DNA of 63,763 nt, the filler included, from Folioceros fuciformis (Eukaryota): assembly GCA_049999805.1 (NCBI GenBank). It is 8 parts of 8 records of this genome, joined end to end, with 100 filler letters (N's around TTAATTAATTAA, not from the genome) between each part and the next. Parts side by side here need not be neighbours in the genome. Positions count along the whole stretch, not along the records: positions 25,456 to 32,639 come from JBNGIO010002889.1; 7 more parts are not named here. The stretch is one strand, 5' to 3'. The notes beneath the pieces are model-generated. The model was given only the letters and a program-made list of their open reading frames with translations, was not told the DNA's origin and searched no databases. Positions 601 through 32,639 of this stretch are shown one piece after another. The translations under genes and the position numbers were made by a program. Within the stretch, counting starts at the first letter, position 1. Each line of letters begins with the position of its first letter.

Positions 601-784
601 AACGACAATTGCATGAGTTTCCCTTACCACATAACAAACCAGGCATCTTGATTGATGTGGAGGGGATGCCTTGAAGACCTTAGCAAACATTCAACACCAT
701 GCTCTCCTTTAACATTGGCGTAGATGAAGACAACACAAGAGAAGGATTCCCATTGATAGTTGAGGTCAAGTATTTAAAAGCACC

Positions 785-1495
785 TTCTAATCCAAACTTT
801 CACATCCCTTGGCGTGCAATAAAAGCATTTTTTAGACATGATGATGATACCATCTTGTAGAGCTCTACAAGATAATGCAAAGAAATTTACATAATAATGC
901 ATGGAACAAGCATGAGTGCCCTTGAAATTTTGCCAACGTTTTTTAAAACCAAACTTCTAATCCAAACTTTGGCGTCTCATTTTATGCAATAAAAGCATTG
1001 TCCAAAAATTATAAGGATACACTCTGAAGAAATCAACAAGCTCTACAAGATGATATAAAAAAAATGTACATAAAAAGGCATGAAATGGGGCTAAATGACC
1101 TTAGAAGTTTACTATCTTTTTTCAAAACTAACCTTTTGATCGAAACTTTGGAGTCTCATTTTATACCTTAAAATCATTTTCAAGACATACTGAGAATATG
1201 TCGTCTTGTAGAGCTCAATGATATAAAGAAGATGAAATAAAGATGCATAGAACGGAACTTAATGCCCTTGCGAGTCTATCAACTTTCTACAAAATCAAAC
1301 TACGAATCTAAACTTTAGGGTTTCATTTCATGTGGTAAATGCACTGTCTAGACATAGGGATATTATTTTGTAGATCTCAATGAACTCTACAAAATTATGT
1401 AAAGAAGCTGAAATAAGAATGTGTAAAACATGACTAAATTCCCTTTCAAGTTTTTCAATAGTTTTGAAAATAAACATTCTGATCCAAAATTTGCA
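785..1495. repeat. Degenerate tandem array of ~170-180-bp units (about 4 units), probably DNA-transposon internal/subterminal repeats
   Basis: Units restart with ttctaatccaaacttt-like motifs at ~785, 955, 1134, 1302 and 1477. Each carries a ttgtagagctc/ctctacaa (semi)palindromic core. Confidence 0.65.
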
Positions 1496-4151: not shown

Positions 4152-4469
4152 TCAACTAACTTGTTTTAACCTCCTTTGAGCATGGCGGGGGTGACATCTC
4201 AACAAGTACTGCATTACCCGTTCAAACTTCTCATCCAATGCAATAAGAGCATTGCATTCTGCGGATGACCATTTCAAAGCAGGGTTACAACGTATGCGAT
4301 TCTCCATAAGCCAGATGCTCTCCTCATTTTTGTCATTGGTCAAATACTTCTTCGCCAACTTGACTAGTTGTGCCAATTCGGGCTTTTCGGGGGCCCTTCC
4401 CCAAGGCTTGAGTCTCCTCCACTTATCCACATGTCTCATCACTCGAGCTCGTTTCATCTCGTAGGCCAT
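4152..4469 (-). CDS. Small basic hypothetical protein (105 aa), possible orphan gene
   Basis: Intact ATG-to-stop ORF with aaacATGGcc start context, a pyrimidine-rich leader and a CTATAAATA box ~100 bp upstream. No recognisable domain. Confidence 0.4.
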   Translation of the reverse strand: MAYEMKRARVMRHVDKWRRLKPWGRAPEKPELAQLVKLAKKYLTNDKNEESIWLMENRIRCNPALKWSSAECNALIALDEKFERVMQYLLRCHPRHAQRRLKQVS

Positions 4470-4567
4470 GTTTGCAGAATGAAAAGAAACCGAGTGAACT
4501 AGAATAAAATGAAAATAAGTGAGCTAGAATGGAATGAAAGTGTGTGAGAATACACCAACCTTGACTT

Positions 4568-4576
4568 TATTTATAG
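4568..4576 (-). promoter_or_regulatory. TATA box upstream of the 105-aa ORF
   Basis: Minus strand reads gcCTATAAATAaag, followed by a tctcacacac initiator-like stretch. Confidence 0.45.
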
Positions 4577-5170
4577 GCAAAGGCAAAACCCTAAGTTTCA
4601 CAAATAATAGTAGTAATAGTATCTAATAACTCAATATTTCATTTATATATATAAATAGAAGATATTAAAACAAAGCTAGGTGCCCAAAGGTTTCTCCCAA
4701 TAAACTACATACCAGGAATGGCAGGTGTGGAAGCTGTAGATAGTAACTTAAAATGTAAGGTGAGGAAAAGCCTCCAAGTTCCCCTTCCCATTTTCTTTTT
4801 CTCCACGTGTATTTTTTTAGTTCCAGAGTTTGCCAGGTTCAGAGCAGTGACTAGGTTTTGGAGGAGAGTTGTTTAGCTATTGTGAATTTCAACTCTGAGC
4901 TCAGGGCCAAGGCAGGCATTGCTTGCAAGAACGCTTTGCTTAAAATTTTGAAGGTATGTGGAGCATTTGCGAATCGTCCGCAAGGACTTATGGATTTGAG
5001 AGCTGGTTGTTCTTTCAAGGTGCCGTGGATCGGCGGTTGCCTGCCTCCGTCGTCGATCGTGTGTCCTGTCCCTGGCGTTTCTGAGTCCATGTTGGAGTCC
5101 CTGGCACCCTTGATGTAATTGCACGATCGGTTGGGTGTGGGACGTACCTCTGATGTGAGGGAAGGACAAG

Positions 5171-7291
5171 ATGGGCAGCCGTGTGATTCATCTGAGGCTG
5201 GTCGGTAGTAGGTTGCTGGGCTCATGGCGAAATGCCAGGACTTGGAGCAGCGTGAAGGATGAGTGCAGGAGTTATCTTGAATTATCCCCTGCGGTGGGAT
5301 CTGGGAACTGTGGTAGGAGGTTACCTCCGAGTGAATGCCCTCGTGCTGAGCTTGCCAATGCTCTGTCACCATGGAATTCCAGTACGGGTGCTTTGTCACT
5401 TCACAGCTCAGGCTTTAGCACCCTGGCTGAGCATGGGTTGAACCCTGCCCATAATCGGAATGCAAGATCTCCTCTACATACGAATGTATCGTCGGTGGTC
5501 GCTGATGTTGATAGTCACGACAGCCCTGACGACAGCAGTTCGGCCTTCCTGGAAGAGGCTATGAGACATGAGGCCATGATGCACGCAGCGGCTGCTGGAA
5601 TGGCTGCCCCGGTGGACTGGCAGAAACAGCGTGTCAAAATTAGGGAACTGGAAGATACATCCAGAATTCAGCCTGTGGATCCTCCCACTCTAGACGTTGA
5701 ACCAGCGGATGTCTACATTCCTGTCAAGGCCTTTTATATTTCGAGAAGGTCAGCGACGCTTATTAACAATTTGATTGGTGAGGTTTCTTGTCCTGAACCT
5801 TGGGCACACTCGTGGCTAAGGTCAGCTGGCCTTGGGATGTTGCAGCGTGGACCTCAAGGGCCTGGCAGCGGAACCGTTTAGTGATGTCACGGTCGCCAGG
5901 AACAATCTTATCATCAGATGCACGGACCGACCGCCTGGGTCATCAGCAGTTTTGAGCAATCCAGTACATTTTTCGTCCTGTATCTCCCTCTAATCCTGAA
6001 TACCGTGCATAGCCTAGTTTTGAGTACCTGACTAGCTATCTCGTTCTGCATGATCTGCTACATTTTCAACTTTGAGGGATGGTTGGGTCTCGGGAACTTT
6101 GCTATGCTCGAGCGTGAGCAGCTCTGGCTGGTGTTCATGAGGGGTGAACTGGTGTGACAGGGGAATCCTGCTGTGAGTGAGAGGTATATGGTAGCGTTTC
6201 AGTACGGGTCAGTGGTGTTTTTCAACTTTCGGGATCAGGAAGAAGAGGACTCGTTGGATGCTGTGCGGAAGTATTGCACGGATCAATTTCGTGAGTCAAG
6301 AAAGGACGGTATGAGCATTTTTACTGTTACCTGTAAATACAAGGTGCACGTCGTTAGATGAGTCCCACAGTTGTGACTTTCAGCTGAAACCTCCGGGTGC
6401 AGACTATGGGGTGGTTGTGAGACCAACGCTGGCGAGTTGGAGTGAGGGAGGCCATGACAGAATCATGTTGAAGAAGCTGGATACGGACAACATTAGAGTG
6501 ATCTCCAGTATCCTCGGGCAAAGTATTGCCCTTGATCATTATGCCAAGAAGGTGAACTGTGTTTGGCAACTCTCTATGTCTTCTAACTCCTTATCCTTGA
6601 TGCTCTTCAAAGAGATGAAGGTCAGTGGCTAACACGGTGGCTGCAGGTAGATGAGATGGTAAACACCTTCAGTGAATTGAACCGAGGAATGGAGCAAACT
6701 GGTACTTTTACGATGACCCGGAAAAAACTGTTTCAGCTTGTCGCTGCTGCAAACACAACTTTGGCAGATGTCATCCTTCGTCTTGGTCTGTTGGAGAGGT
6801 ACGTTTTTGTTGGACACTCTGCTGACCTTAGTGTTTTCTTTCGAACTTGTGTTCCCCTCTATGGCAACATCACTTGTTGAACGTGCACGCATGCATGTGT
6901 ATTCACATTGTGAGCTCAGACTTTGTTAGCTCTGTTCATCAGGTCAGATGCAGCATGGAAAGATGCAAACTATGCTCAGATCTGGGAGTATCTGAGAGAC
7001 GACTTCGAGCTGGATGAGCGATTTGAAAGTCTTGATTTTAAGCTTAACATCATTCAGGTTGTCCTTCAATTGCGGCTCGATATGGTGCAGCACGGACTCA
7101 GTATTGTGGTAACCTGACATCAACTTATAGTCATTCTGTTCTTGTTGTCGTTGCAGCACAACGTCCGGTTCTTCCTAGAGATACTACAGAATCGGAAGTC
7201 AGATACACTGGAGTGGATCATTATCCTCCTTATTACGGGAGAAATTTGTGTTAGCTTGTACGACATTCTTCACACCGCAAAAGTCCTATGA
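5171..7291 (+). CDS. DUF155/RMND1-family protein (plant RETARDED ROOT GROWTH / RRG-LIKE type), likely mitochondrial; 7 exons
   Basis: Exons 5171-5748, 5846-5963, 6161-6308, 6403-6551, 6647-6798, 6943-7057 and 7157-7291 have GT..AG introns in compatible phase. Spliced peptide contains IPVKAFYISRSVDLK, YMVAFQYGSVVFFN, SILGQSIALDHY, KLFQLVAAANT, IWEYLRDDFELDERF and KSDTLEWIIILLI. N-terminus is Arg/Ser/Leu-rich and transit-peptide-like. Confidence 0.92.
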
Positions 7292-7803
7292 CAGGTTGGT
7301 TTGGGATCCCGTCTATTGAAAGGAACAAGTTTGTCGGCAGACAGGTTGAAGGGCACTGGGCAAACGTTATCAGAAATATCACGAGAATATTTTAGACAAC
7401 AATTTTAGAACCTGAGTTGAATTAGTTGCCGAGTAGCCAACCAGGCCACTGAATCAGTGAATTCACTCTTTAGTTGAAGTACAATCCCATTTTTTCCATC
7501 ACATCTTTTGCTGAGTTGTATAAATGTTGGGAATGTATTCCCGCCAACTTATTCCGGAATCACATTCCTAAAGCCTTGAAAAATAGTGTCTCGTACACAT
7601 TTTCTCAGGTACTTGACCAGTTTGGAGACCTGAGCATCGTGCAACGCTTATGTGATATTCCGATGTTTACATCACAGTGTGTTCTTTGGTTACATCACAC
7701 GTAGTCGATTGTCGCTGGGAGAGCAGAACGCACCTTCCTTTCTGTAATGAGAAACGTCCGCAGGTGACGAGTACAAATGTTGCAAATGTTCTCCTTCCCT
7801 GAT

Positions 7804-10617
7804 TCAGGAAAACAACAGTGTCCTACTTCTCTTGGGATGGTTCTCATCTCCAGCCAAAAAACTATGCACCAGTCCATCCATGTCCGTCCACCAGCTCAGG
7901 CCTGGCTGCTTCCGAGCCAGGATCGTTGTCCTTAGCTCCTGCATGCTCTGTGCCTGCTCCCACATCTTGGCACCAGTGTAAATGTTCGACATCAACACAT
8001 ATGCTGCGGCATCTCTGTCATCTAGCTTCACTGCTTGGTCGAAAGCATAGCGTCCCACCTTCACATTGCTCCACTTCTGACAGGCACCCAGCAAGCTGTG
8101 CCAAACTCCGGCACCAGGCGGGAAAGGCATTGCTCTCACCATAGTTAATGCCTCTTCCAGGTGGCCTGCACGTCCCAGGAGATCCACCATGCACGTGTAG
8201 TGCTCCTCTGTAGGGGTGATGCCGTACTCTGTGCTCATAGACTCAAAGTAAGCTCTCCCCTTGTCCACTAGGCCCACATGACTACAGGCTGCTAGTACAC
8301 TGAGGAAAGTTCTACTGACTGGGTGCATGCCATCCTCTCGCATTCTCCGGAGCAAGTCAAATACCAATTCACTTTCTCCTTGAAAGGCGTAGCCTGCAAT
8401 CAGTGCACTCCAGGTGACAACATCTCTTAAAGGTAACATATCAAATACCTGCTGCGCATCAACCATGCTCCCAGACTTTCCATACATGTGTATCAAACTC
8501 CCAGCTACAAACAAATCAGCTTGAAGTTCTTGTTCTTTGATCTGCTTGTGTAGCCGCCTTCCCAGATGCAAAGCTGATACATTTGCACATACTTGCAGCA
8601 GGCACACAAATGTCACGCGATTGGGTACAGCCATGCCTTCATGCTGCAAGAAATTATACAGTAGAAGGGCTTCCTGGTTCATGCCCTGCTGGGAATACCC
8701 TGTAATTAGAGCATTCCATGTCACCGCATCCTTTTCACATAGTCTGTCAAACAGGTTCCTCGCAGCTTCCAAGTTGCCACACTTGGCGTACATACTCACC
8801 AAACTATTCGCCACAGACACTTCAGCTTGGTGTCCTTGTGCTCTAATCTCTGCATGAAGCTGCTTCCCCTGTTCCAACGCCGGTGGCCCCAGGCTTGCAC
8901 ATGCATGGAGGAGGCACACAAATGTCACAGGGTTGGGTACAGCCAAACCACCATCTCGCATAGCCATGTAGAGACGAAGGGCTTCCTGCCCCATGCCCTG
9001 CTGGGAATACCCTGCAATCATGACATTCCACGTAACCACATCCTTTTGGCATAGTCTGTCAAACAATGACTTAGCATCGTCCAGGCTGCCACACTTTGCA
9101 TACATATTCACTAAACTGCTGGCTACAAACATATCATCTTGATATCCTTCTTGTCTGACATGAGTATGAAGCTGCTTCCCCGTCTTCAACGCTGATTTGC
9201 CCAAACTTGCACATGCCTGCAGGAGGCATACGAGCGTCACAGAATCGGGAACGGAGATGCCTTCTTCTTCCATAACACTGTAGAGACGAAGGGCTTCTTG
9301 CCCCAGGCCCTGCTGGGAATACCCTACAATTAGAGCAGTCCATGTGACCACCTCTTTCTGACCAAGTCCGTCAAACACTCTCTGAGCATCTACCAAACTG
9401 CCACACTTTGCATACATGTTCACCAAGCTACTGGCGATAAACAAGTCTTCGTCACTACCTCGTTCTTTAATCTGCACATGAAGCAGCTTCCCTATCTCCA
9501 ATGCCGGGGGACCAACATTTGCACATGCCTGCAGGAGGCACACAAACGTCACGGAATTGGGTACAGCTATGCCTTCCTCTTGCATTCCACTGTACACATG
9601 GAGGGCTTCCTGCCCCATGCCATGCTGAGAGTATCCTGCGATCATGGCAGTCCAAGTTACCACATCTTTTTGATCGAGCCCACTGAAAAAACTCTGAGCA
9701 TCTTCCAAGCTGCCACACTTTGCATACATGTTCACCAAACTGCTGGCTACAAATGCATCAGCTTCGTGCCCTTTTTCTCGGATTTCCGCATGAAGCTGCT
9801 TCCCCGCCCCTAGAGCTGGAGTTCCCACACTTGCACATGCCTGTAGGAGGCACACAAAAGTCACAGACCCGGGTGCAGCGATGCCTTCTTCTTGCATGGT
9901 ACTGTAGAGTCGAAGGGCCTCCTGACCCATACCCTGCTGGGAATATCCTGCAATCATGGCATTCCACGTTACCACATCTTTTCTATCAAGTCTGTCAAAC
10001 ACTCTCTCCGCATCCTCCAAGCTGCCGCACTTTGCGTACATGTTCACCAAGCAATTCCAGACAAACAAATTGGGCTCAACGCCACTCGACACCACATCAC
10101 CATGCACCTGTTTCCCAGTCTTCAAGTCCGATCGTTTTGCACAAGCCTGAAGAGCGGCCACGAACACATGGTTGTCTGGCTTCATTCTTGACCTCCTCAT
10201 CCGCTGATAAAGTTGTATGGCTTGTTCGTCTTGCCCTTGTTTCACATGCGCAGAAATTATGGCTGACCACGTGTAGGCATCGGGCTTATCAACCACTGCA
10301 AACACATCCATTGCCTCTTGTAACCTGCATTGAGAAGCATACATTCGAAGGATTTGGTTGCACAGGAACGTGTCCGATTGGTACCCTCTGTCCACCGTGA
10401 AGGCATGCACGCGGCGGCCCTGTATAATATCCTTCTTGACTACACATTGCTTCAAGACAGTGCAGAACAGGTATTTCGAAACACAACAGTCTGCCTGCAA
10501 CAGAACTCCCAAAGCCTCAACAGCGTGAGTGAGCCTTCCTTCATGACATAGCTTGAGCACGGTCACAACCGTTGCGCCACTTTCCAATCCAACAGGCCTG
10601 CCAGCGCTTGGAGCCAT
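7804..10617 (-). CDS. PLS-class pentatricopeptide repeat protein (organellar RNA-editing factor), E1-E2 plus WW-type PG box, DYW catalytic part absent
   Basis: 937-aa intronless ORF with ~7 P-L-S triplets (VVTWNAMIAGYSQQG / TFVCLLQACA / SSLVNMYAKCGSLEDA), then HYTCMVDLLGRAG, VWHSLLGAC, AYVLMSNIY and PGLSWWTDMDGLVHSFLAGDENHP. Confidence 0.95.
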   Translation of the reverse strand: MAPSAGRPVGLESGATVVTVLKLCHEGRLTHAVEALGVLLQADCCVSKYLFCTVLKQCVVKKDIIQGRRVHAFTVDRGYQSDTFLCNQILRMYASQCRLQEAMDVFAVVDKPDAYTWSAIISAHVKQGQDEQAIQLYQRMRRSRMKPDNHVFVAALQACAKRSDLKTGKQVHGDVVSSGVEPNLFVWNCLVNMYAKCGSLEDAERVFDRLDRKDVVTWNAMIAGYSQQGMGQEALRLYSTMQEEGIAAPGSVTFVCLLQACASVGTPALGAGKQLHAEIREKGHEADAFVASSLVNMYAKCGSLEDAQSFFSGLDQKDVVTWTAMIAGYSQHGMGQEALHVYSGMQEEGIAVPNSVTFVCLLQACANVGPPALEIGKLLHVQIKERGSDEDLFIASSLVNMYAKCGSLVDAQRVFDGLGQKEVVTWTALIVGYSQQGLGQEALRLYSVMEEEGISVPDSVTLVCLLQACASLGKSALKTGKQLHTHVRQEGYQDDMFVASSLVNMYAKCGSLDDAKSLFDRLCQKDVVTWNVMIAGYSQQGMGQEALRLYMAMRDGGLAVPNPVTFVCLLHACASLGPPALEQGKQLHAEIRAQGHQAEVSVANSLVSMYAKCGNLEAARNLFDRLCEKDAVTWNALITGYSQQGMNQEALLLYNFLQHEGMAVPNRVTFVCLLQVCANVSALHLGRRLHKQIKEQELQADLFVAGSLIHMYGKSGSMVDAQQVFDMLPLRDVVTWSALIAGYAFQGESELVFDLLRRMREDGMHPVSRTFLSVLAACSHVGLVDKGRAYFESMSTEYGITPTEEHYTCMVDLLGRAGHLEEALTMVRAMPFPPGAGVWHSLLGACQKWSNVKVGRYAFDQAVKLDDRDAAAYVLMSNIYTGAKMWEQAQSMQELRTTILARKQPGLSWWTDMDGLVHSFLAGDENHPKRSRTLLFS

Positions 10618-13283
10618 GAATTTTTCAGCAAGAGGACCGTCTGAGACTCCCCATGCCGAAAGTCATGCAAGCAAGGCTCATCTCCTCTTCCCTGTTGACG
10701 TCCGAAAGTACGGGGCCCCGAATCACATCCTGCCCGCGATCGTCGCTGGGAGATCCATCTCCAGCCAGCAATTCTGTTTGATGGAATGGCGTTCTTGCAA
10801 CGGAGCTGACACTGGCGAATCCTTTGTTTGCCCATGTCGACGGTCGATTCCTTGAAGTCGGGGAAGCGGGACCTCTTGCGAGAATACCAGTGAAACCATT
10901 CTGTTCAGTCCACTGTGCCCACCACGGATCCTGGTACCCATAGCGCGCCTGAATCGCTACACCCCAAACAGCCATGGGGCTTTAGAACTTATGAAATGTC
11001 AGCGACAGCAGGTAGCTGTTACACATCCTAAGACCCATACTGGCACTGAATGTAAGTCGTTCCCACGCTTTTTGCCCCGGTACCATGTTCACACATTCAG
11101 GGTCTGCCAGAACAAGAACAAACTGATCATAAATGAGGTCTCTCACGGCATCACCTGGTGATACGCACAACTTGCAAATACGAAGTTCTCATAGGGAGAG
11201 CAAGCGAAGCACGCACAAGCGAACATAGTGACACCCTGAACCGAGCTCAATTCCGACGACTGTGCAATCTGAATGTAAGAACGCGAGTTTCCTGAAGTTC
11301 TTCCTGAATTTGCCGGGCTTTGCACCCAATAAAAGAGTTTGGATTTGGTGGTCAGTCTGAAGGTGGTGCGCAATCATCTTTGCCCGTTACAGATGCATTC
11401 AATCATGACGCACGGTGAGAAGGATCGGGACTCGGTTCCAGACGCGTGATGACAAACGCCTCCAACAGTGCAGAGAGCAGGATGCAGGGTAGAGGGTTAT
11501 CTGAGCGCTGTTCTGAGAGCCATCTTGTCTTTCAGGTGTACAATCGTGACAAGCGGGCCAGTGACGAGGAGGAAACATCTGACTGAAACGACCAAGAGAG
11601 GAAGGTACTCGTAAGAGGTCATCATGTTCGCCTTAAAAAACCATTTGAGAAGTGGCTCGACCATGCACCAGAGGAATCTGTAGAAATTTTGTCCACGTCC
11701 TGCACAGGCACAGGGACGGATTCACAGATGGACCTTCGAAACAGATCAGGGGTAGACAAGCTGCAGTAAGGAACAAGAAAGCCACGATCAATGATGTGCT
11801 TGTACAGCAACCTTTCCTTCACGCCAGCTGCCATGGCTAGTAAGAGCAATTGCCCGACGAAGAGTGGGCCTTAAAGTCCGAATTCGTCGCAACACCTCCA
11901 GGGACCCCGTCGACGCCCGTTAATCATGAACCTGGAGTGCAAAGTAGGTCACACTTCGAATGTCCTCCGCTGTTTCTCATCGTCACTTCCCCCGATTCCA
12001 AGACGACAAAGGTAAGGCCACCAAGCTCCTTGCTCCGTGTCGGCGAGCGATTTCACGCAGACATGCAACAAGACAAAACAGAGTGGCGTGGGGGAATGGA
12101 ACACACGAGACGAAACGAAGAGAGAAAAGGGAGGGGAGAAAGCACGAATCTCCTTTTGGAGGTTGCAAGGCGCGGGATGGACAGCAATTTCCTTATTTCT
12201 GGCATATCTCGTACTGGTTTCTGTCTGTTGGACGTTTTGTCCCTAGAATAGAGGAAGATGGCCAAAAATATATCTTTTTCTTATCCTCTTTCCTTTATTG
12301 TATGCTATATCACAACCGCTTCACATCTAGAATAAAGATTCCATTTTCGTGAGTCAAAAAGTAAAGTCTCCTAGCAAAGTGGAAAGCCAGGTGGGAACCC
12401 TTTATCTCCAAGATCTCTCTAGACTAAGCAGCAAGACTCGAAAGAAAGAATTCATGAAGGTTTATATTAAGACTTTGCAGCTTTTCCGATGACATGCGTC
12501 CATAATGGATAATTTTTTTTTTACAGGGTGAGTTCAAGTATTTCCTGATTCCATTAAAGGTAGTCCAGGTAAGTTTGGGCATGTAATGCACTTGGTATTG
12601 TAGGTGACAAAAATGTGTCTTAGTAAGATCAAAGGGTAATAGAGTAGTAGAGCCTTAACAACAAATGATAACAAGGAAATGGGTTAGTTTTTAATTTGCA
12701 ATAAGGACTAATAGCATTACAACAACTTAAGAATGTAGCTTGAGACCATCAGCAAAGAAGTACGGGGCCTATGTGGCAATGAAGAGATTGAAAAAATTGC
12801 ATCTATCATGTGAAGTTGGAAGAAAGGCAACACATGCAAAGAGGGAGACCCATCTCGTTCCAATGCTTGAGGTAGGCTTTAGTAAAAACTTTTAAAAATC
12901 CTTGTCCATGGTCCTATACGTCACATGGCAGGAGGCTGAAAGTATATTCATTATTTTTCTTGGATTCAATTGACTCTCTCCGTTACTCCATCAATATTTG
13001 GATAGTATGCAATACTCATGTATAGTTACACATTCAAACTTCGAATCAAGTGCTACCGAAATTCTCTTGGGCTTGCCTGTGATACTTGTACATGTATGTT
13101 TTGAACAAGTTGGCTGCCTCAGAAGTTGTCACTCTCTTCTTAATGGGGATGGTGCTTGCTTGGTGAATCTATCCACCATTGTCATGATAGTTGTATACTC
13201 ATTAAACATTAAACAGTGTTTCTTACTAAGGGTCTGATTATACTCAAAGGGTAATTTGCCAATAGTAAACGTGGAAGGTTCTG

Positions 13284-13499
13284 GATTTTGGGCATGAATT
13301 TAGGGGTTTAGAGGTTTTCCAAAAAAGAAGGGTTAAAATAATGGTGTCCATGAGCAAAACGTTAGTCACCCACGTCCATGGTGGTTAACTAGATTTTGGG
13401 CATGAATTTGGGGGTTTAGAGGTTTTCCAAAAAAAAGAAGGGTTAAAATAATGATGTCCATAAGCAAAACATTAGTCACCGACGTCCATGGTGGTTAAC
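13284..13499. repeat. Direct tandem duplication of ~108 bp
   Basis: gattttgggcatgaattt...cgtccatggtggttaac occurs twice in tandem. Confidence 0.8.
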
Positions 13500-14689
13500 A
13501 TCATGGTGTGTTGCTTAATGATTTCTTTTGGAATTATGAATATAATGCCCATGTGTGCTGCAACTTGGGAAAAAGTGTATAGGCACAAAAAAAGCTGTAA
13601 AGCCAACAACACTAAACACAATAAGGATGTTGCCCATACACTATCATCTACACTTCAACACAAAGACTTGGGTTGCGACACCAGCAATGCCTGCCTGCCA
13701 TACTTGTAGTTGATGTGTTTTTGCGGGAAATGAAGAAGGGCGCCGACATGCCGATGCCCTTCTCTGGCACAAGGGGACTATGCATGCGCTAGTGGCATCA
13801 ACTGTAAAAAGGATGACGCTTGAAGTTACCCTTTTCTGCAATACTAAACCACCCACCTACCTTGTAACTTGAAGAAAGCATGCAGTTGTTGGCACCATTT
13901 GCTTGGTAGTGAGTTTGGAATAGGGTGTGGTTGCTACAGTGACATAGTCATGAAGACATTTGCCACATCTGTGGTCCCCTTTCCTTCTTGCCCTTCTACG
14001 CATATGGAACTACGCATCAACCACATGCTCATTGTCAGAGTCAATGCCGTCTTTGGCACCTACTGGAGAGCCATCCTCTTCCTTCTCATCATCACTGTGA
14101 AGAATTGATAGGGTTCTAGGTTAAAGACGCGATTGTATGTCCTTCAGTTTCTACCTGTTTCTTCAGTTTCTTTTTGGAGGAAACCGTAATATTGGAGAAC
14201 AATTTTGTTGACATACAACTTCTGCACATTCAAGGCTTTCATTGTTTTTCCTTCTCTCCCTCTGGACGACCTCTCCTCGTCCTCTCCACTTTGAACAATG
14301 TATTCTCTAAAATAGCGGCCCTCGAATGCATCTGTATGTTCTATCCGCCACCAATGCACTAGAAGGAATGGATTGGCGGCTCCTACGTTTGTCTGGATGT
14401 CTCCCTCACAAGGAGTTACTGTGAACATACCCTTCTGTATTTTTGAGATATTACCGTTCATGCAGTCAATTTCCTCATTCCTTCTTTCCGCACTTTGATA
14501 TGCACCCAAGTACATCTCTCATAGTGCAACATCCCGAATCAATGCTTCTTTTAGAATGGCTTCCTCGAGCAGTTGTATGGGCAGCATTGTGGCAGCTGCT
14601 GACTTCCTATGACAAGTTGTTGAGTTTCTTTATAGCGTTGTCGTATTGTCGACCCCTTTCTATCTTCGTGATAGGCCAAACAAAGAAGT

Positions 14690-16304: not shown

Positions 16305-18790
16305 GATGCTCTTGTTTGTGCACGAGGTGGTCAAGGGGAGCAAGGTGGACTGGGGGAAAATCTTGTACACCAGGATGGACGAGGAAACGCAAAATCTAAC
16401 CCTGTCCTCTCCCCGACCTTCAATGATTTCTCCCTTCCTAATTCCATATCTACTACTATGCTAATCTCGTGTCTGAGCTGGAGGTGCTCGCGTCACTGCA
16501 CATGTGGAGACCAATAAGAGATGTAAAGTGGAAGCCCGCCGAGCCAGCGGAAGCCGACTCCAGCAGCTGGGAGTCAGGCGATGTGGATAGTTCGGAGGAG
16601 GGGACCCCTGCCAGGCAGAAGAGAAAGGCAGGGTCAGGGAAAAAGGCTCCCGCTAAGAGGAGACGGACTAGTGGTCATATTGTCAGAAAAGGAAGCGGGT
16701 TCGCATCACAGGAGGTAGTCCTGGAATGGGCTGAGGGGGAGCAGGGAGCTGTTCAAGAACTAGCAGAGCAGGAATCGAATGAAGAGGAACTAGAAGCACC
16801 CCAGGAGCATATGCCAGCTATGGAAGTGGCCCCTCCTAAGGGGAGGAGTGAATTAGGGCACATTCCAGAGTAGGAAGTCTTCCCAGAATGAGAAGTTTTT
16901 AGAAAAATTCCTCAGGTGGAAAAGTTGCAGGCAGGGGAGCTAGAGAAGTTACGAGCGCCGCTGGGAAGGCAGATAACCAAGAGGGGAATGGCTCCTATGG
17001 GGTCGCAGGAGGTGAATCTGCCAAGACTAACCTCAGCCACGGTGCAGGCACAAGCGAACGTGTTGGACCAGGTGGCTAGGGCATTGACTTGGCTGAGCAG
17101 GCAGGCAAAGAAGGAGGCTGAGGCCCGAAGTAGGGAGGCAGAGGCAAGAGGAAAGGAGTCCGAAAGCCTGGAGACAGCTGGCGGAGTCTGAAACGGCACG
17201 AGGGCAAAGCACAAGCAGAAGAAGAGGTGCGCCAGGCCAAGGTAGAGATCCAGGCGCTGATGGAGCAACAGGAGTCGCTCCTAGCTCAGGTGAGGGTAGC
17301 CCATGAGACTAATTTGGAAATACAGCATGAGATAGCTAAGGCTCAGGAGTAGGAGATGGTTGCGATGGAACAAGCCCAGAAGCTGGCGGATAGGTACAAA
17401 CGGGAGCGGGACGAGGCCAGAGAGCGAGTAAAAGGGAAGGGCAAGACTAGGTGTAGTGGTCGGACGATGACGCCGGTAGCCGAAAGGGCTACCGGTGGTC
17501 CAACTCCAGATCCGGTAGCCGACAGGCCTACTGGTAGTCGGGTTCCAGAACCGGTAAGCGGAGGGGCTACCGGTAGTCTCGCGATGCCCGAGGTAGTTGA
17601 AGGGACTGCCGGTGGGGGAGGTACGACGTCGATACTTGAAGCCACGACCCCGGTAGCCGAAGCAGTAAGGGCAGAGGCGCTTGTGCACAGTCGTTCCAGG
17701 TTGGTGACTCGCACCAAGCGGATTGAGCTGGGGAAAGTAGTAGCAGCTGGAGGGATGGAGGACTCTCAGGTACCCCAGGAGAGCAGGGGTCAGGCAGCCC
17801 GAGGTAGCCCAAGGGAGGAAGGGGTAAGCACCTCCTTTATGATAGAGGGTCAGGTTATGCTGCAGTATGAGGAGGAGGCCTCTTATGTGCCAGGCCTCTA
17901 TGCAGAGGGAGCCCGAGTTCTGAAGCTGTTTTTGTATGTACGTATGGGCATAGGAGGGACGCGGGGCTACGGCCTACAACTGAAGACCCGCAAGGGCATC
18001 TGCTACTACCGCTAGCGGGTATGGGGGCTGCCTCATTGCTATTCTAAGGCAATCTTGGAGGAACTGACGGAGGAGGAGGTGCAGCGGTGGGTTGAACAGG
18101 AGCATGTCCTCATCCTCACTAATCGGCAACGGAGGGAGGAGAGGGATTTCCTGCAACGAGACCCGCTTGCGCCGCCTCCAGCGAGAGCCTGTAGCAGCAG
18201 TAGTGAGGTGGAGGTCCTGTGGGAGGACCTGCCTGACCAGCGGCGAGGTAGGAGGCCAGAGGCGGACCAGTAGGGGGAGGAGCACGACGGCCAGGAGGAA
18301 GGCGCCAGTGGCAAAGAGGGAGGCGATAGTAATTACAATCTAGACTAGTTTTTTTTAGATTGTTTTTGCTTGGACCTAAGCCGCTCAGAATTTAAGAGCG
18401 CTGACTGACCCCAAACAGACTTTATGGTGGAAAGACCGCCACTACCGTGTACAAGAGGCCAGTTTGAGGCCTCAAAAAAATCAGCAAGAAACCAGCCAGA
18501 CATTACGACCTTATGGAAGCCTAGCGATGGCCGTTGCTGGACAGGAGGTCCAGGCAAGCGAGCGCACGTAGTGTTCTGAGGGTGTGGGTGCAGGTGGTGG
18601 ATGCTCCGTAATCGGAAACCAGGAACGAATCGGGAGGAGAGACCTCACAGAGTGGGAGACGAACTCCCCAGCTATTCCCGTGGCGGTTGTATGGAATGGT
18701 AAAGGTGCTGGAGGCCGAATCCACGAGTCCGGAGTAGAAGTGGATACCCCTTCCCTTAGCCTCCGGTGACCCACCATTCCTTCAATTTCG
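16305..18790 (+). mobile_element. Repeat family X copy 1: decayed extra-ORF region of a probable Gypsy-type retroelement
   Basis: Homologous to 29313-31950 and 61270-62622: FVHEVVKGSKVDWGKILYTRMDEE..., coiled-coil, TGS-repeat linker, GVSTSFM..LQYEEEASYVPGLY..LKLFLYVRMG domain and a conserved downstream block. Confidence 0.7.
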
Positions 18791-25455: not shown

Positions 25456-25500
25456 AAACCAAACCATACCACTATTAACCCTTTTTCAACCAAAACAAAC

Positions 25501-26262
25501 TACTACCCCAAACTTTGGAGGTTCATATTTGGTTTGCTGGATGGACAATTTAACGGATTGATATTGCAAACTGTTTTCTCAAGCTTCGCCAAGAAGACAA
25601 CTTTTGAGGATTTTCTGCTTGAGGTCATGTATGGGGTGGAGGATGCGCACATGGTGAGGGAGGCGATGCAAAAATGGTGCAAAGGGGGTGGTCTGGTTTT
25701 GTTTGTCTGAGATAAGACAAACATGTCAAATGAGCGAGAAGGTTTTGAAATTGTGGAGTACATAATTGTTGCATGGTGCATGAAGGAGGGAAGTAGTAAG
25801 GGCCACACGTCTATGATGCCAGGGCAACATCAAGGAATCTTTAACACGGGTAGGTCCATCATCGCACATGACACTATGGTGAAGAAACATGTCTACCTAT
25901 CGCATGACAAACGAGTTGTTTGCCCATATCAGAGGCCCTTGGGATTGATGGACAGGCTTATCCACATCTTCAGTAAAGAGGGGAAATGAGTTGTCAATGC
26001 TTGTTTTGGTAGCGGCACTAAACTGTTGGCAACGTTGCTTGTTGGCAGAAACCGCGTAACAATCGAAGAAGACAAGCGATGCGCAGCGTATACCCCGCAA
26101 AGAATCCACGGCTATGATGTTCTGCTAGATGTAGAGGAGGAGATGACATTCAATGTGCATCAACGAGGGCCATCCCAATTCTGGGCTAAGGAGGTTTGCA
26201 TCAGCGAAAGAGACAACTCTTCAGCACAAGTTGTGTTACTGACGTCGAAGAGGCGGAGTTGA
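25501..26262 (+). pseudogene. Beta-class DNA N4-cytosine/N6-adenine methyltransferase (N6_N4_Mtase-like) remnant, N-terminal catalytic motif not present
   Basis: One frame reads ...LFV*DKTNM...EYIIVAW...CPYQRPLGLMDRLIHIFSKEGK*VVNACFGSGTKLLATLLVGRNRVTIEEDKRC. This matches the W-x-K, HPxQKP..L..lI...S..GD.VLDPF.GSGT and GR..I.iE motifs (X, I, II) if both TGA (25708, 25987) derive from TGG. Confidence 0.75.
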
Positions 26263-27231
26263 AAGACGAGGCTCAGCGAAGACTTGGAGCCAAGACAAAA
26301 AAACCCTAGAGCAGGTTTGGGAGGGGACAATATCTGATCAGGAAGATATGGAAGATTCACGAGTGGATGAGAAGGCGCCGGAGGAAATTGACAACTTTGA
26401 TGTTGAGGAAGAAGCAAGATTACAGGATGTTGCTATTGTGTTCGACTTCGAGGCTGCAGAACATGCTGGAGAGCTTGAGAGTTTCAACATAGGGTTGGGA
26501 GTCATAGTTAGATGTGTTGTTCACTTTGCAGTAGGTGTTTAGTGACATACCTTTTAATAGTGGTTAATGAAAAACATGTGGGGCCCATAAGTGAACCCAA
26601 CGTCACTGAAATGGTCCTCGGGGGAGACAGTGCCAACGGACCGACGCCCTCTCTTCAGCGCGAGAATTATCTTGCATACAAAGCACAAGTTCAGGCTGGG
26701 CAATACTAAGAAAAGAACCATTGCCTGCATAGAAACTAGCAGAATTTGTTTATTTGTGCAAGGTGTAAATTTTGTCAAAAAGGTCTACCCCCTTTAGAAG
26801 AGGACACAACATTCCCCTGCTTGCAAGTTTATGGCTTTAGTGATGAAACAAAATAAGTTGTTTGAGTATTGGAAAACAGAGGGACCGGAGATGTTTGAGG
26901 TTTTGAAGTAGCAAAGTTGTTTGTGGCATACAGACATACATTGAGAGACTTCGAAATATATGCTTTTGAAATTGCTATGGAAGTTGTCTATTTAAAATGG
27001 TATGAAAGTTGTTCTATGAAGTTGAAACAACCAAATATGAGAGCACACATAAAACAAGTGTACCTATAAGCTACTGCCAAATGCACACATCCTTGACTTG
27101 CAACGTACCACCGAACTCCACTACCTACTAATTAACATGCCACACCATAAGCACACGTGGAGAACATGCTATATATTTGAGTGGTTTAAGAATTGTGTAT
27201 GCGTGTGTCTCCTTGTCTGAGCACACTTTCA

Positions 27232-28393
27232 TCAGGCCACCAAATCCAGACATGCTACTTTCTTGAAGGGAGTCTTCTTGCTAAGATAGCCGTCTCTCTT
27301 GCCTTTTTGGTAGGCAAGTAACTTGCCTACCTTCTTTGATGGGCAAGCAACCTTGCATGGAGCCTTCCTGCCTTGTCTAGAGTCTTGTTCACTTCTTGTC
27401 CTTCTCCCTTCCAAGTCTGTCACAAGTCCTAGGAGTTCCTTTGTCATCTACATCCAACCTTTTGTACCACTTTTGCTATGGTCACCAAGGCCTCCTTCAA
27501 GTAACCCTGCAAGCATCGCTGCAATTTTCAGTTGGTTTTCCATCTGCAATTCATTTCGATGGAGCTCATGCTGCAACATTACTTTTGCATGTGAAGCTAG
27601 TTTGTCATTTTGGCTGCTTCAATCTTTGCTAGACAATCAGCGAAAGATGATAAGCCTGCTGAAATTTCCTTTCCCACTCTTGAAATAAAAGACCTTCTAG
27701 GCTTGACTTTTTTGCCTTGTACAATATCACTTAGATTGTCCTATTCTACAATTTTTAGCTTACTTGGGGATTCTGCACAGTGCTCTTCTATAGGCTCTTG
27801 AGCTTTGGAAGTGATGTGATGAGGTGCATATAGTGAATCACCTTGAGAAGCTTGCTCCAAATCAAATAAGTAAGTTCCACTCTTTGCAATATCTGAAGGT
27901 GAGTTGGTAATACCTTGTGAAGGCTTTGACTTGCTAGGATCCCAGGCACTTGGAATCCCTTGGAATTTAGGGTTTTTTACAAATGTTTTCTACTGCATGG
28001 AAGTGAGGCCATGAAAAATTGATGTTCCTTCTTCTTTCGGTTCCACTTCTCAAGATTTTCCATTTTCATCTTGCACTTTTTTGCACTCACACTAAGAAGG
28101 CCATAGTTGTTGCTAACTTTAGTAGCCACCTCATTCCAGTGTCTTCCAGTGAGATTACCTTGCTTGAGGTGCACCAGGCGCATCTCATGATAGGCTTCCA
28201 TCACAACAATTGCTGCCTCTTCACTTCACATGAGGTTGCCATCACGCTTTGATTTGGCTATAGCATGTTGCTCCTCTAAGCCTGCAAGGAGATCATTGTC
28301 TTGGTCTTCAAAGGCTTTTGCGTCCTCCACAACAGTGAGATGTCCTATGTTTTGTCTTGTAAAGTCTTGGAATTCTTTCAGTTCCTAATCCAT
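27232..28393 (-). pseudogene. Myb/SANT-like (trihelix-type) DNA-binding protein remnant with C-terminal coiled coil
   Basis: From ATG 28393: ...M*SEEAAIVVMEAYHEMRLVHLKQGNLTGRHWNEVATKVSNNY...SAKKCKMKMENLEKWNRKKK, later HAKVMLQHELHRNELQMENQLKIAAML. Contains stops and frameshifts. Confidence 0.75.
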
Positions 28394-28846
28394 GACTAAC
28401 TGATGAAGTGTTGATAGGCAAGGAGGCAAAGTATGTGGCGGAGGCTAAGAAGAGGCTAGAGTACTTGTGGTGAAAGCTAGAAGTTTTGCTGGAAAGGCTA
28501 CAAGAGTCTTCACCCTCGCGAGAGGTGGACGTGTGCGAGAGCGATGACCTAAGTTGTATGATTATTAATTATAATTATACCATCACGGGTATACAATGGA
28601 ACTAGAATAAGTCCTTGAATCGTTTTTTTGGACCAAATATAGAATACTGCAAACTCACCGTGAGCGCAATTTGCTACTTTCTTTAATGGAAACAAACCGT
28701 TTTTTAGAGCTTTTCTTTTCTTTTCAGGAAACGGCGCAGTACTTGAACTGCCATTGTGAAAGGCCCTTCTCAAGTAGCGTTTTGTAGAGGAAAAAAACTT
28801 TGGACACTCCCATTTTGAGTGACAGAATGAGTAGGCTGCGATTTTT

Positions 28847-29030
28847 TGTGTGAAGGAACGAGCGAATCAGCTTAGTATGTGAATAAGATGGGGGTATTCA
28901 TACCCAAAAATGGCCTTGGTCTTTGGGTGTTTGGGATAGCGAAGACCACGATCTGGAAGTGAGTGAGTGGGGGTGTCCTTGGGCCTTGGTGGTTCGGGGG
29001 CATTTAGGAGGTTATATATATCCCCCCTTG
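28847..29030 (-). repeat. Possible 3' LTR with polypurine tract of family X element
   Basis: Minus strand reads caagggggga (PPT-like, 29021-29030), then ~170 bp ending ...ccttcacaca. No second copy is in the window to confirm it. Confidence 0.35.
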
Positions 29031-29312
29031 TGGAAATAAGAAATAGAAATGAGTAGGGAAGGGGGCTAGCTAGTTGTGGATTTAGGAAAAAGGATGGGTT
29101 GAGGTGATTGGGCGACGATGGCCAGTGGGGCAACCGTCGCGAAAAGGACGACTGGTGGTAGGCTAACTGGCAGTAGTGAGAGAAGAAAACAGCCAGTATA
29201 AAAATCCTAAAGGGAAGTCTAGAGGGGAATTAAGTTAGTCTTCGAAACGTGAAGGGCAGTAACCCTGGAGCGTGAAGGCGGCTGGAAGGGAAGCAGATGC
29301 TGAGGCAACAAG

Positions 29313-31950
29313 ATGGGCCGAGGCAAGCAGCGAGTGCTCAGCGAGAGAGAGGAGGGACCGCAAAAGCCGAAGCACAAGGAGGAGATAGGCAGGATGAGGT
29401 CACGTCCTGAACTGCTGCCTGGAGTACCAGAGCAGGAGGGGGAACCTCCTGTTCCCCAGATTGACCTACTCTTGTGGCCCAACATGGAGCATTGGAGGGT
29501 TAGAGCAGGAGGGTTGGTGGATGAATTGGGTATGGGTTTCATGACCCAGAAGTGGAACTACGCAGCGCCACAGTTGGTCAGGGAGTGCACCCTGAGGTTG
29601 AGGGAACCTGTTCGTGAGAAGGGGATCAGAGGCAGACCGCAGGGGTGGAACCTGGAGCTAGTGAGAAGGGTGTATGGCCGTGACCAGCGAGAAGAGGGAG
29701 GATTGGTGCTAGAGTCCCTGAGGAAACGGGGGGGGTACAGGAGACGCTGAAGGACTGCTCAAACCAGGCACGAAGAAGGAGGCTAACGGATGGTTGGTTC
29801 GCGACATGGCGAGCCCGCAGCTGATGGGTCTGGCCAGGTGGTTTCTTAGTTTTCTCCAGGTTCGCAAACAGGATTATTTGTCTGACCATATGCCCTTGTT
29901 TGTGCATGAGGTAGTGAAGAGGACTAGGATTGATTGAGGAAAAATTTTGTATGCTAGGATGGACGAGGAGAGGCAGAATTTGACCCTGCCCTCTCCTCAG
30001 CCTTTGATGATTTCCCCGTTTCTAGTGCATATTTATAGTTATGCTAACCTGGTGTCGGAACTGGAGGTGTTGGCTTCACTGCACATGTGGAGCCCAATCA
30101 ATGATGTAAAATGGAAGCCTGTTGAGCCAGTGAAGGCTAACTCCAATAGTTGGGTGTGGGGACAGCTTGGAGGGGAAGGTTCCTGTCAGGCCTAAGAAGA
30201 GGACAACAGCTTAGGGGAAGACCCTTGCCAAGAGGAGATGAGTCAGTGGGTAGAGCACGAGAGGAGGAAGTAGGCCGGAGACACCAGAGACAGCCCTGGA
30301 GCAAACTGAAGGTCAGACAGAGGAGCAAGATGTACAAGAACAGGAGGTAGAACAGGAGCTCGCTAATCAGGGGGTTATGGATCAAGGACTGGAAGAGCAG
30401 GGGCAGGATGAAGCAGGGCTGGAGGGGTCTCATGAGCCGACTTTAGCCGCCAAGTTAATTCCTCCCAGGCAAAGGCCGAGGTCCAAGCGCTAAGGGAGCA
30501 ACATGGGATCCTACTAGCTCAGGTGAGGGAGGCCCATAAGACTAACCTGGAGATACAACAGGAGATGGCCAAGGCGCAAGAGCTGGAAATAGCAGCAGTG
30601 GAACAGGCCCAGAAGCTGGCTGACAGGTACAAGCGGGAGCAAGACGAAGCCAGAGAGAGTGTGAAGGGGAAGGGTAAGGTTGGGCGCCCAAGTCAAACGG
30701 CGACCCCGGTAGCTGAAGAGACTACCGGTAGTCGAGAAGGGGAACCGGTAATCGAGCGGACTACCAGTAGCCGAGTAGTCGCCAGGGCTACTGGTAGCCC
30801 GGCTGAGCCTAGAGTAGCCGAGGGACCAGCCCTGGGAACCAAGGAAGAAACAGCGAAGGCGCCTGAGCTTAGGCGCTCCAGGAGATTGATCTGCACCAGA
30901 AGGACAGAGCCGGAGGAAGCAACAGCTGGACGGGTGAAGGACCTTCAGGTACCCCAGAAAGATGGGGAACAGACAGCCCACGGTAGTCCAAGGGAGGAAG
31001 GGGTAAGCACCTCCTTTATGACAGAAGGTCGGGTTGTGCTGCAGTATGAGGAGGAGGCTTCCTATGTGCCAGGTCTTTATGTCGAAGGGGCCAGAGTTCT
31101 TAAACTGTTTCTGTATGTACGTATGGGCACAAGAGGGACGCGTGGCTACGGCCTGCATCTGAGGACCCACAAGGGACTCTACCGCTACAGCTGGTGGATG
31201 ACAGGCCTGCCCCATTGCTACGCGGAGGCAGTTCTGGAGGAGTTGACAGAAGAAGAGGCCCAACGATGGGTAGAACGGGAGCCTATTGCCATCCTCAGTA
31301 ACCAGAGGAGAAGGGGGAACAGTGGTTCTCAGCAGCAGGGCCCACCTGTGCCGCCACCGGACAGGTCCAGCAGCAGTAGTGACGTAGAGATCCTTTGGGA
31401 AGATCTGCCCGATCAGCAGAGGGGTAGGAGAGCAAGAGGGGGACCAGTGAGAGGAGACGCGCGAAGACCAGGGGGAAGGCGCCAGCGGCGTGGAAAGTGG
31501 CGATAGTAATTGCAGGCTAGGATAGCGTTATTTTTGGAATGCTTTTACTTGGAATGGAGCGGCTTGGAATCTAAGAGTGCCGACTGACCCCTGACAGACT
31601 TTATAGCGGAAAGACTGCCACCACCATGTATAAGAGGCCAGTTTGAGGCCTAGGAAATTAGCAAAAATCAGCCCAACCACCCAACCTTGCAGGAGTCTAG
31701 CGATGGCCGTTGCCAGACAGGAGGTCCAGGCAAGCGCGCGCACGTAGCAACCTGGGGGTGTGGGTGCAGGTGGTGGACGCTCCATGATCGAGCCAAGGGA
31801 TGAATCGGGAGGTGGAACCTGGGCGAGTGGGAGACGAGCTCCCCAGCTATCCCGGGGGCGATCACGTGGAGTGGTGAGGAAGTCGGGGCCGAATCCGCGA
31901 GTTCAGAGTGGAAGTGAGTATCCCTTCCCTTAGCCCCGGTGTTTCAGCAT
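29313..31950 (+). mobile_element. Repeat family X copy 2: most complete extra-ORF (about 29313-31506, disrupted)
   Basis: MGRGKQR...QLVRECTL...IRGRPQGWNLELVRRVY...LFVHEVVKRTRID*GKILYARMDEE...ISPFLVHIY, then acidic region, coiled coil and the conserved C-terminal domain. Resembles accessory ORFs of plant Tat/Athila-type Gypsy elements. Confidence 0.7.
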
Positions 31951-32639
31951 TCCTTAATTCCAAAGGAGAAGGCCCGGAGAGGTAGGACTGAGTATGGAGT
32001 CAAGAAAATGTGAACAAGCGATGAAGCGGGTTCAAGAGAGGCAGCGAGTGTGAGAGCGAGACGTTGAGCGGTCGTCAAGACAAGACCACGCGATTGGAGT
32101 GTGTATGTGAGAGACGAAGAGTGGTGGCAGAAACATGGGATGGTTGCATGGTGGAAGCTGCCGAGATCCTTGTGAGGGTGAAAGAGACTGGAGACTATAA
32201 TAAAAAAGGGGAAATGTTGGAGGCGTCGCGGAGAGGCACTGTGAACCAAGGGCGTGTGCCAAAAGTGAGAGAAAGTGGAACCATGAAAGAGGAGTAGCCG
32301 AGTTGGGAAGGTCGAACGCCGATAAGACTCTGGCGAGTGTGTAGTTGAAAGGCAATCAAGAGCAAAACGACCTAAGTTTGGGCTTGAGGGTTACGTGAAT
32401 AGATTGGGAACTGTACTGCCAGAAGGCCCTCGCGACTCTCTGAGGGCCGATGTGTGTATGACGGACGTTGGTGCGTTTCGGTCGAGGCTATGAGGGGTTG
32501 ACGAGTAAGGGCGGAGGTCTGTGAGTATGTAGGTGAGAAAGACTGGAGGTAAGTTGCTAGCGGTTTGAAAGGCAAGGACTGTAAAGTAAGTATTAGAGGA
32601 TAACCCCGAGGTAGAGGAGAGAGAAGGAGCGAATTAGAG

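Follow-up and report, generated by a model that had tools for sequence, protein, structure and literature searches.

A decayed amino-methyltransferase gene in Folioceros fuciformis as probable cargo of a DUF7869-type DNA transposon family

Two decayed open reading frames (ORFs), one for an amino-methyltransferase (MTase) and one with a Myb/SANT domain, face each other at the start of a contig of the Folioceros fuciformis genome (assembly GCA_049999805.1), and the question that they raise is whether a DNA transposon carried them and, if so, which one. The stretch of DNA analyzed, here called the window, comprises 63,763 nucleotides and consists of eight contigs joined with N/TTAATTAATTAA spacers, the pair being found at the beginning of the third contig, which spans positions 25456-32639 (JBNGIO010002889.1). 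An earlier note on this DNA had proposed a DNA transposon, with PIF/Harbinger elements as its point of comparison, carrying both the methyltransferase and a separate DNA-binding protein. The analysis described here makes it probable that the MTase relic is a dead, 5′-truncated copy of a cargo gene belonging to a different family of DNA transposons, which have terminal inverted repeats (TIRs) and a DUF7869 transposase. The features of the MTase part of the contig are the following:

25456-25525, no strand assigned: piece of a very high-copy repeat with which the contig begins, recognized by read depth and loose ends; it truncates the MTase on the 5′ side
25526-26262, plus strand: relic of a beta-class (PF01555) amino-methyltransferase catalytic domain, recognized by profile matches and motif reading, with three in-frame TGA codons
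26243-26542, plus strand: acidic C-terminal tail of the MTase ORF, entered via a frameshift; an open frame of 99 amino acids (aa), rich in D and E

The identity of the MTase relic was addressed with several profile comparisons. In a six-frame scan, the Pfam family N6_N4_Mtase matched it with E 8.4e-5 and 23.1 bits, which is under the cut-off of 26.7. A full HMMER scan of 1.84 billion representative proteins returned 112 hits at E ≤ 1e-3, seven of them at 1e-10, with a top value of 1.1e-15, and N6_N4_Mtase was found in 14 of the 15 top and long hits scanned with Pfam, the exception being P0033. Eleven family members, each exceeding the Pfam N6_N4_Mtase cut-off, were aligned, and hhalign placed the window relic on this alignment with 99.6% and E 6.7e-25 over 183 columns, covering relic residues 37-230. 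Additionally, when the family profile was run with hmmsearch across the 48 frames of the window, the MTase relic was the sole match (E 5e-38). A word-based search for proteins of nearly the same length gave no match to the MTase. Informative names were available for three of the ten family hits looked up, namely Gb_37443 of Ginkgo biloba and two Chara braunii proteins annotated as "DNA methylase N-4/N-6 domain-containing"; the others were two JGI entries named "hypothetical protein" and five Logan entries without a name.

The reading frame that begins at 25456 is interrupted by TGA at 25708, 25987 and 26260 and is otherwise open. The first two of these codons fall on tryptophan columns of the family alignment, which bears out the TGG to TGA decay that the earlier note had described for this gene. 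A frameshift near 26250-26320 leads into the acidic tail ending at 26542, which in our own unscored reading of the sequences appears similar to the C-terminal tails of the family members. The motifs PYQRP and CFGSGT are preserved, and the latter, the S-adenosylmethionine-binding motif I, lies at 26005-26022, 3′ of PYQRP and therefore in the permuted order, aligned with CSGSGT of the family. The catalytic motif IV, of the [DNSH]PP[YFW] type, is unrecognizable, since the relic reads LDGQFNG where its relatives have DIPYGF, and the profile alignment begins only after it, at residue 37. Judged by these sequence features, the relic derives from a member of the PF01555 family but no longer works as one.

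The loss of the 5′ part can be located precisely. Homology to the MTase begins only past 25525, where the reads place a junction with a very high-copy repeat, and loose ends were counted there 26 times in X1 and 22 times in X2, two read runs of this species. In X1, the depth reached 44849 in the bin 25456-25695 versus 35-110 beyond it; these values, as all depths given here, are summed over assembled contigs and are not equivalent to copy number. Because the 5′ part is cut at 25525, the upstream domains of the window MTase are not visible.

A profile made from the 11 family members was used to scan metagenome contigs, yielding 589 pattern-matching stretches, of which 94 were confirmed by tblastn and 80 were retained as loci related to the window MTase (named L001 and so on). 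Many of these loci are eukaryotic, with short introns. An ORF of about 890 aa with a DUF7869 domain (E about 1e-52) adjoins the MTase gene in 9 of the 80 loci; if only the 17 loci flanked on one side by 2.5 kb or more are counted, 6 have it. Two subfamilies show this pairing, and the identity between their MTases is only about 30%. The two genes are divergent in L007, L027, L030 and L036 and convergent in L003, L004 and L065, and L023 is rearranged.

Two of these loci, L007 and L027, contain elements of about 7.8 kb that are delimited by 37-nt terminal inverted repeats and enclose the MTase and DUF7869 genes together. The L007 element extends from 3144 to 10954, with TIRs at 3144-3180 and 10918-10954 that are 81% complementary. 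The homology between the two loci (76-83%) begins and ends exactly at the TIRs and their flanks differ; L007 and L027 are independent insertions. Eight element ends found by motif all have AACAC, preceded by TA before ACAC in six cases and by TTAA before CAC in four, and the target duplication would therefore be TA or TTAA. Related MTase fragments at L053, L055 and L078 were observed beside plant-type genes and elements, including a leucine-rich-repeat receptor-like ORF with LRRNT_2, DUF4283 ORFs and a long interspersed nuclear element; given these neighbors, some of the metagenome loci are plant DNA.

The named homologues of the DUF7869 proteins belong to Ceratopteris (61% identity), Adiantum, Riccia and Branchiostoma; the related transposase proteins are closest to fern proteins, and the named ones include ferns and a liverwort. 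The DUF7869 clusters of the Atlas are mainly from Streptophyta and Oomycota. The core of the protein was modeled with a predicted local distance difference test score (pLDDT) of 80.8, and when this model was structurally aligned with representatives, all matches over about 125 or more residues were DDE transposases or integrases: Mos1 (Z 6.0 over 153 residues), simian immunodeficiency virus integrase (Z 5.8 over 126), Metnase (Z 5.6 over 156) and Sleeping Beauty (Z 5.4 over 154). These matches span invariant acidic residues in the motifs IDGMDQ, QLDN and HTHDHID. The modeled core would therefore be a middling fit to an RNase H-like transposase, best resembling folds of the Tc1/mariner type. 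The literature search returned nothing on DUF7869 and nothing on such MTase elements in streptophytes, the supplements of the Bostrychia preprint discussed below and its Chondrus reference lying outside that search.

Relics of two kinds of transposase occur on the first contig of the window, and both are unlinked to the contig of the MTase and Myb ORFs:

14168-14521, minus strand: relic of the C-terminal domain of a DUF7869-type transposase, recognized by profile match
441-566, plus strand: PIF/Harbinger transposase relic, DDE_Tnp_4, E 8.3e-9, 35.7 bits versus a cut-off of 24.8

The DUF7869 relic was matched by hmmsearch with E 2.9e-9 (alignment A4) and E 1e-4 (alignment A3), and by tblastn with E 0.001; the carrier family therefore occurs in this genome. 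On reading the translations, this relic adjoins a Ty3/gypsy-like one, and Pfam found nothing in the six frames of 11801-14200 beside it. A tblastn match of P0001 at 13715-13918 (E 0.37) was dropped, as the family profile gave no confirmation of it. The Harbinger relic is frameshifted, and its second frame is blank. The earlier note was right to report a Harbinger transposase relic on a different contig. Its proposal of a PIF/Harbinger carrier did not hold up, since no DDE_Tnp_4 was found in the six frames of 25456-32639 and the relatives of the MTase ride with a DUF7869 transposase. The interpretation given in the earlier note is partly supported by these results, in that the MTase family is transposon cargo, though of a DUF7869 element rather than Harbinger.

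Several observations weigh against attributing the window relic to such an element. The contig at 25456-32639 itself has neither a DUF7869 signal nor a TIR, and therefore the link of the relic to a transposon rests on its relatives and on copy number. No transposase was found in 11 of the 17 well-flanked loci, several of which have prokaryote-like MTases or flank only on the wrong side. The identity of the relic to any relative is only 24-32%. A Foldseek search of the DUF7869 core against the PDB gave nothing meaningful, and the structural matches listed above are middling, with Z below 8. Moreover, the family members of Ginkgo and Chara could be domesticated host genes, in which case the relic could be the decayed copy of a gene of that kind.

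A quite different origin, in which the MTase relic would come from a DIRS-type retrotransposon with a methyltransferase (MT) domain or from an integrated fragment of a giant virus, was also considered. With the 5′ part of the gene gone and its upstream domains unseen, such sources are conceivable; the accessible part of PMC4738411 describes an MT domain in DIRS1 elements, and that of PMC7248222 describes many PF01555 MTases in chloroviruses. However, the DIRS1 domain is, according to the same part of PMC4738411, PCIF1-like and belongs to another MTase group than the permuted PF01555 type, so that the DIRS idea falls, and no reverse transcriptase, RNase H or recombinase was found in the six frames of the contig. 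Regarding viruses, a scan of 2.9 million viral contigs produced 22 pattern matches, none of which was confirmed. In addition, the intact relatives sit in TIR elements. Both sources were dropped, and this origin is scarcely credible.

The intact relatives also reveal what the truncated relic may have lost. Their MTase gene is spliced, and its product joins a domain of ParB/Noc fold to the beta-class amino-MTase. The first exon, as represented in the product of L007:7079-8776, folds as a beta-rich domain followed by a second domain, and for the latter Foldseek returned ParB, Noc, KorB and sulfiredoxin, with a probability of 1.00, E 1.4e-4 and eight hits at E ≤ 1e-3. The beta-rich domain upstream of the ParB fold, at residues 65-175 of the L007 product, was modeled with a pLDDT of about 92. 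When the sequence profile of the N-terminal exon was compared with PDB sequences, no ParB match was obtained, and only the fold comparison revealed it; the Pfam hints for this part are weak (HTH_ParB E 8.6e-4; DUF6551 E 0.019 and 0.076).

In the catalytic part, motif IV is intact as ADIPYGF or ADVPYGF in all nine loci read (L001-L005, L007, L010, L027 and L030), and NPYQKP and SGTG are present in L001, L007, L010, L027 and L030. Among solved sequences, those closest to the family profile are the adenine MTases DpnA (5hek, E 5.3e-12), CcrM (6pbd), M.MboIIA (1g60) and M.RsrI (1eg2), followed by N4-cytosine enzymes. The aspartate in the first position of motif IV points, as far as sequence can tell, to adenine over cytosine as the probable substrate.

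Additionally, a 17-nt palindrome (core TCGATGCCCCGCATCGA, with up to 3 mismatches) was found in 9 of the 80 loci, mostly directly upstream of the MTase gene. Arrays of it lie between the transposase and the ParB-MTase gene in L007 (6731-6833) and L027 (4103-4300), and it also occurs upstream of the MTase gene in L010, L014, L026, L032, L047 and L058. These palindromes could serve the ParB-fold domain as binding sites of the parS kind. The palindrome of the relatives was not found in the window.

Taken together, the intact elements are about 7.8 kb long, with 37-nt inverted ends, and contain genes for a DUF7869 protein of about 890 aa and, spliced, for a ParB-MTase. The ParB-like module would bind the palindromes, tethering the MTase to the DNA of the element itself, and the tethered enzyme may then write N6-methyladenine (6mA), which could mark or regulate the element or shield it from silencing. 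The copy in the window no longer works, being cut at 25525 by a repeat and having three TGA codons, a frameshift and no recognizable motif IV. The idea of a transposon-borne MTase accompanied by a DNA binder, as put forward in the earlier note, thus survives in the form of DUF7869 elements with TIRs, but the binder in the relatives is a fused ParB fold and not a Myb protein.

It remains to be considered what the Myb/SANT ORF contributes. The features of this part of the contig are the following:

26543-27231, no strand assigned: spacer between the convergent ORFs, without a recognizable domain, apparently multi-copy
27232-28384, minus strand: Myb/SANT (trihelix-like) ORF relic with a helical, coiled-coil-like C-terminal part, in three frames with four in-frame stops
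28022-28207, minus strand: Myb_DNA-bind_4 domain, 27.1 bits, E 5.6e-6
28576-28850, no strand assigned: approximate right-hand limit of the low-copy repeat unit; the depth begins to climb here toward a high-copy element

The Myb ORF is split over three frames (28384-27990, 27989-27597 and 27618-27232), with in-frame stops at 28228 (TGA) and at 27743, 27599 and 27450 (TAG). Its first piece, of 131 aa, barely passes the gathering cut-off of Myb_DNA-bind_4 (PF13837), which is 27 bits, and the score is 21.9 bits when the piece sits in the whole minus-strand frame, where the domain occupies residues 1478-1539. The Atlas clusters nearest to this piece are Myb/SANT-like (score 0.93, 180 shared features), and the nearest one has Myb_DNA-bind_3 in 95% of its members, a family that we take to include plant Harbinger ORF1 proteins. 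The helical C-terminal part presumably resembles that of SIP1/ASIL-type trihelix proteins. A word-based search among 5.8 billion proteins, with candidates of 211-674 aa, gave 89 candidates and none at E ≤ 1e-3; this search needs shared 5-residue words. Having no relative there, the Myb piece would probably not be a recent duplicate of any host gene in the catalogues. The Myb ORF is a dead gene separate from the MTase gene, and it may be a Harbinger-type ORF1 relic, a lineage-specific second cargo gene or a trihelix pseudogene in the same repeated stretch.

The profile matches to both relics (hhalign for the MTase and Myb_DNA-bind_4 for the other) confirm the claim that a plus-strand MTase relic and a minus-strand Myb/SANT ORF are real and convergent. 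They are separated by about 0.7 kb if one counts from where the MTase tail ends, and by about 1 kb if one counts from where the MTase domain does. It had also been claimed that the two were decayed in the same way. This is only partly borne out. The stops in both relics are all TGA or TAG and none is TAA, but the observed/expected ratio of CpG, 0.64 for the MTase part, is no more than 0.15 for the Myb part, a contrast suggestive of separate histories.

Whether the two belong to one unit was approached through the reads of the species. The MTase, the spacer and the Myb ORF each appear to be multi-copy, with several contigs at 80-90% identity and similar depth; the diverged contigs listed, at 81-90% identity, cover the MTase end, the Myb tail and the Myb domain. 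From 25.7 to 28.6 kb, spacer included, the summed depth in X1 is 35-110, and in the spacer alone (six frames of which gave no Pfam match) it is 37-90, versus about 9-12 for single exact contigs. At the right border, X1 has a depth of 109 over 28336-28575 and, in the bins that follow, of 250 and 470. Unlike the pair region, the flanks reach the value already given for the left edge and 250-3670 on the right. None of the read contigs listed spans both ORFs, the listed pieces being of at most 779 nt.

One explanation of this arrangement is that the MTase and Myb/SANT ORFs are two cargo or accessory genes of a single DNA transposon, Harbinger-like or not, in which the Myb protein would target the MTase. 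In its favor, the ORFs are adjacent and convergent and have a similar multi-copy depth, with no single-copy dip between them, and the closest metagenome subfamily has an element gene, the transposase, 0.55-0.65 kb downstream of the MTase on the opposite strand. The Myb_DNA-bind_3 cluster nearest to the Myb piece, if Harbinger ORF1 proteins belong to it as presumed, and the Harbinger transposase relic elsewhere in this genome point in the same direction. However, the linkage of MTase and Myb genes was not encountered in the relatives: an ORF survey around related MTases, comprising 100 ORFs from 39 loci, contained no Myb domain, and tblastx of 26263-28900 against the 80 loci gave no match. The relatives already have a fused ParB-type binder of their own, the contig lacks DDE_Tnp_4, and the absence of any read contig connecting the ORFs and the unequal CpG ratios also count against it. 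Furthermore, the TIRs and 3-bp TTA/TAA target duplications expected for a Harbinger element were not found framing the pair; no inverted repeats of at least 20 nt occur in the contig, and a seed of 8 gives only weak, chance-like pairs. This single-transposon explanation is therefore judged unlikely, and the broader notion that both ORFs lie in one mobile unit of any kind has odds somewhat better than that, although we lean against it.

Alternatively, the two could be chance neighbors, that is, a decayed domesticated MTase gene of the host, or else a stray piece of transposon, next to the pseudogene of an ordinary trihelix factor lacking introns, in a repeat-rich region that was later duplicated. 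The contig is a patchwork of repeats, the Ginkgo and Chara members of the MTase family carry ordinary gene annotations, the Myb ORF matches a trihelix Pfam family and in its helical part presumably recalls SIP1/ASIL-type proteins, and the CpG decay of the two parts is unequal. On the other hand, the Myb piece is without a relative in the word-based search described above, and the apparent multi-copy state of the MTase, the spacer and the Myb ORF demands an additional duplication story. Such a coincidence is very unlikely.

Farther along the contig lies another repeat:

29890-31960, no strand assigned: unrelated GC-rich high-copy element flanking the pair, with copies at 16306-18787 and 61290-62622

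Three contigs of the window contain this element, its copies being 73-79% identical, with a depth in X1 of up to 3670, and an open frame of 356 aa within it (30436-31506) belongs to no Pfam family. A further run, X4, comes from the same sample as X1 and X2. On 25456-32639 it has nearly no exact words, and it differs by C>T 350 times and G>A 206 times versus A>G 116 and T>C 79, with stretches in which every site is converted; it looks like a bisulfite- or enzyme-converted library, which could give 5-methylcytosine (5mC) over the region. Neither X4 nor another run, X3, which contains a small share of the sampled words, was informative about habitat or strain. With regard to the host, a plant, a pentatricopeptide repeat (PPR) gene of the DYW type, a family label that comes from a reading of motifs, can be read on the minus strand of the first contig at approximately 7900-10300. 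It is long, has an E/DYW-like end and is apparently intact and intronless, in contrast to the decayed transposon genes.

Transposon-borne PF01555 MTases with ParB-like binders are already known from red algae. In the portion of the Bostrychia moritziana preprint available here (doi 10.1101/2025.02.11.637652), PAG2 of Plavaka elements is a PF01555 methylase with SET and PAG3 combines a ParB-like domain with a 2-oxoglutarate (2OG) oxygenase, inverted-repeat arrays adjoin PAG3, cargo moves among transposon lineages, and, in the authors' proposal, the element both binds its own DNA and modifies it. The likeness to the present family, to the extent of that portion, lies in DNA transposons with a PF01555 methylase, a ParB-like domain and repeat arrays near the ParB-bearing gene. 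However, the two functions are split over two proteins in PAG2 and PAG3, whereas here the ParB fold and the MTase form one protein, in which no SET or 2OG domain was found. The red-algal carriers described there are Plavaka and also Mutator, Zisupton and Fanzor elements, and here the carrier has a DUF7869 transposase; their hosts are red algae, and here they are streptophytes, namely fern-like contigs, Ginkgo, Chara and this plant.

Other transposons with epigenetic cargo are covered by the accessible sections of PMC12730594, in which fungal DNA transposons encode TET/JBP dioxygenases, and VANC of VANDAL and the SET genes of HarbingerS/MuDR are cited. These resemble the present case, as far as those sections go, in that a cut-and-paste element carries an enzyme or regulator of epigenetic marks that probably acts on its own DNA. 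They differ from it in being, by the same account, 5mC erasers, histone methylases and anti-silencing factors, whereas here the cargo is an amino-methyltransferase on another transposase lineage.

With DpnA, CcrM, M.MboIIA and M.RsrI, the family shares the beta-class order, motif IV before motif I, and its upstream ParB/Noc fold is as in phage and plasmid fusions. ParB-MTase fusions are common in phages. They are covered in the available part of PMC4738411. Unlike the ParB-MTases of phages and plasmids, this family is eukaryotic, spliced and transposon-borne, and has an extra N-terminal beta-rich domain. With PIF/Harbinger elements, the locus has in common a Myb/SANT-like ORF with transposon-like decay, in a genome with a Harbinger transposase relic elsewhere; unlike them, it shows on this contig no DDE_Tnp_4, TIRs or 3-bp duplications, and the MTase relatives use a different transposase. 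A further comparison is offered by N4CMT of bdelloid rotifers, which the accessible text of PMC8885841 presents as a single host gene with a chromodomain and as a proven writer of N4-methylcytosine (4mC). To judge from that text, both are bacterial-type PF01555 amino-MTases fixed in a eukaryote and fused to a module for targeting chromatin or DNA, but the present family is apparently multi-copy transposon cargo with a ParB fold and, from the aspartate of motif IV, predicted N6-adenine specificity.

Since the copy in the window is dead, its value is that of a pointer to the MTase family. The most far-reaching proposal, that TIR transposons of streptophytes (ferns, Ginkgo, Chara and this plant) encode an active 6mA writer that acts on their own DNA by way of a ParB-type clamp loading at the internal palindrome arrays, and that a Myb/SANT trihelix gene is a second DNA-targeting cargo in this lineage, is quite unlikely in this full form. 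If it were true, it would represent a self-marking transposon system in land plants, which the part of PMC4738411 consulted describes as poor in N6-adenine DNA methyltransferases. Carried by transposons through ferns, a gymnosperm and a charophyte, an intact-looking ParB-tethered amino-MTase would give plant genomes a concrete source of 6mA or 4mC writers, and it would extend the self-binding, self-modifying transposons of red algae to the green lineage, with a different transposase.

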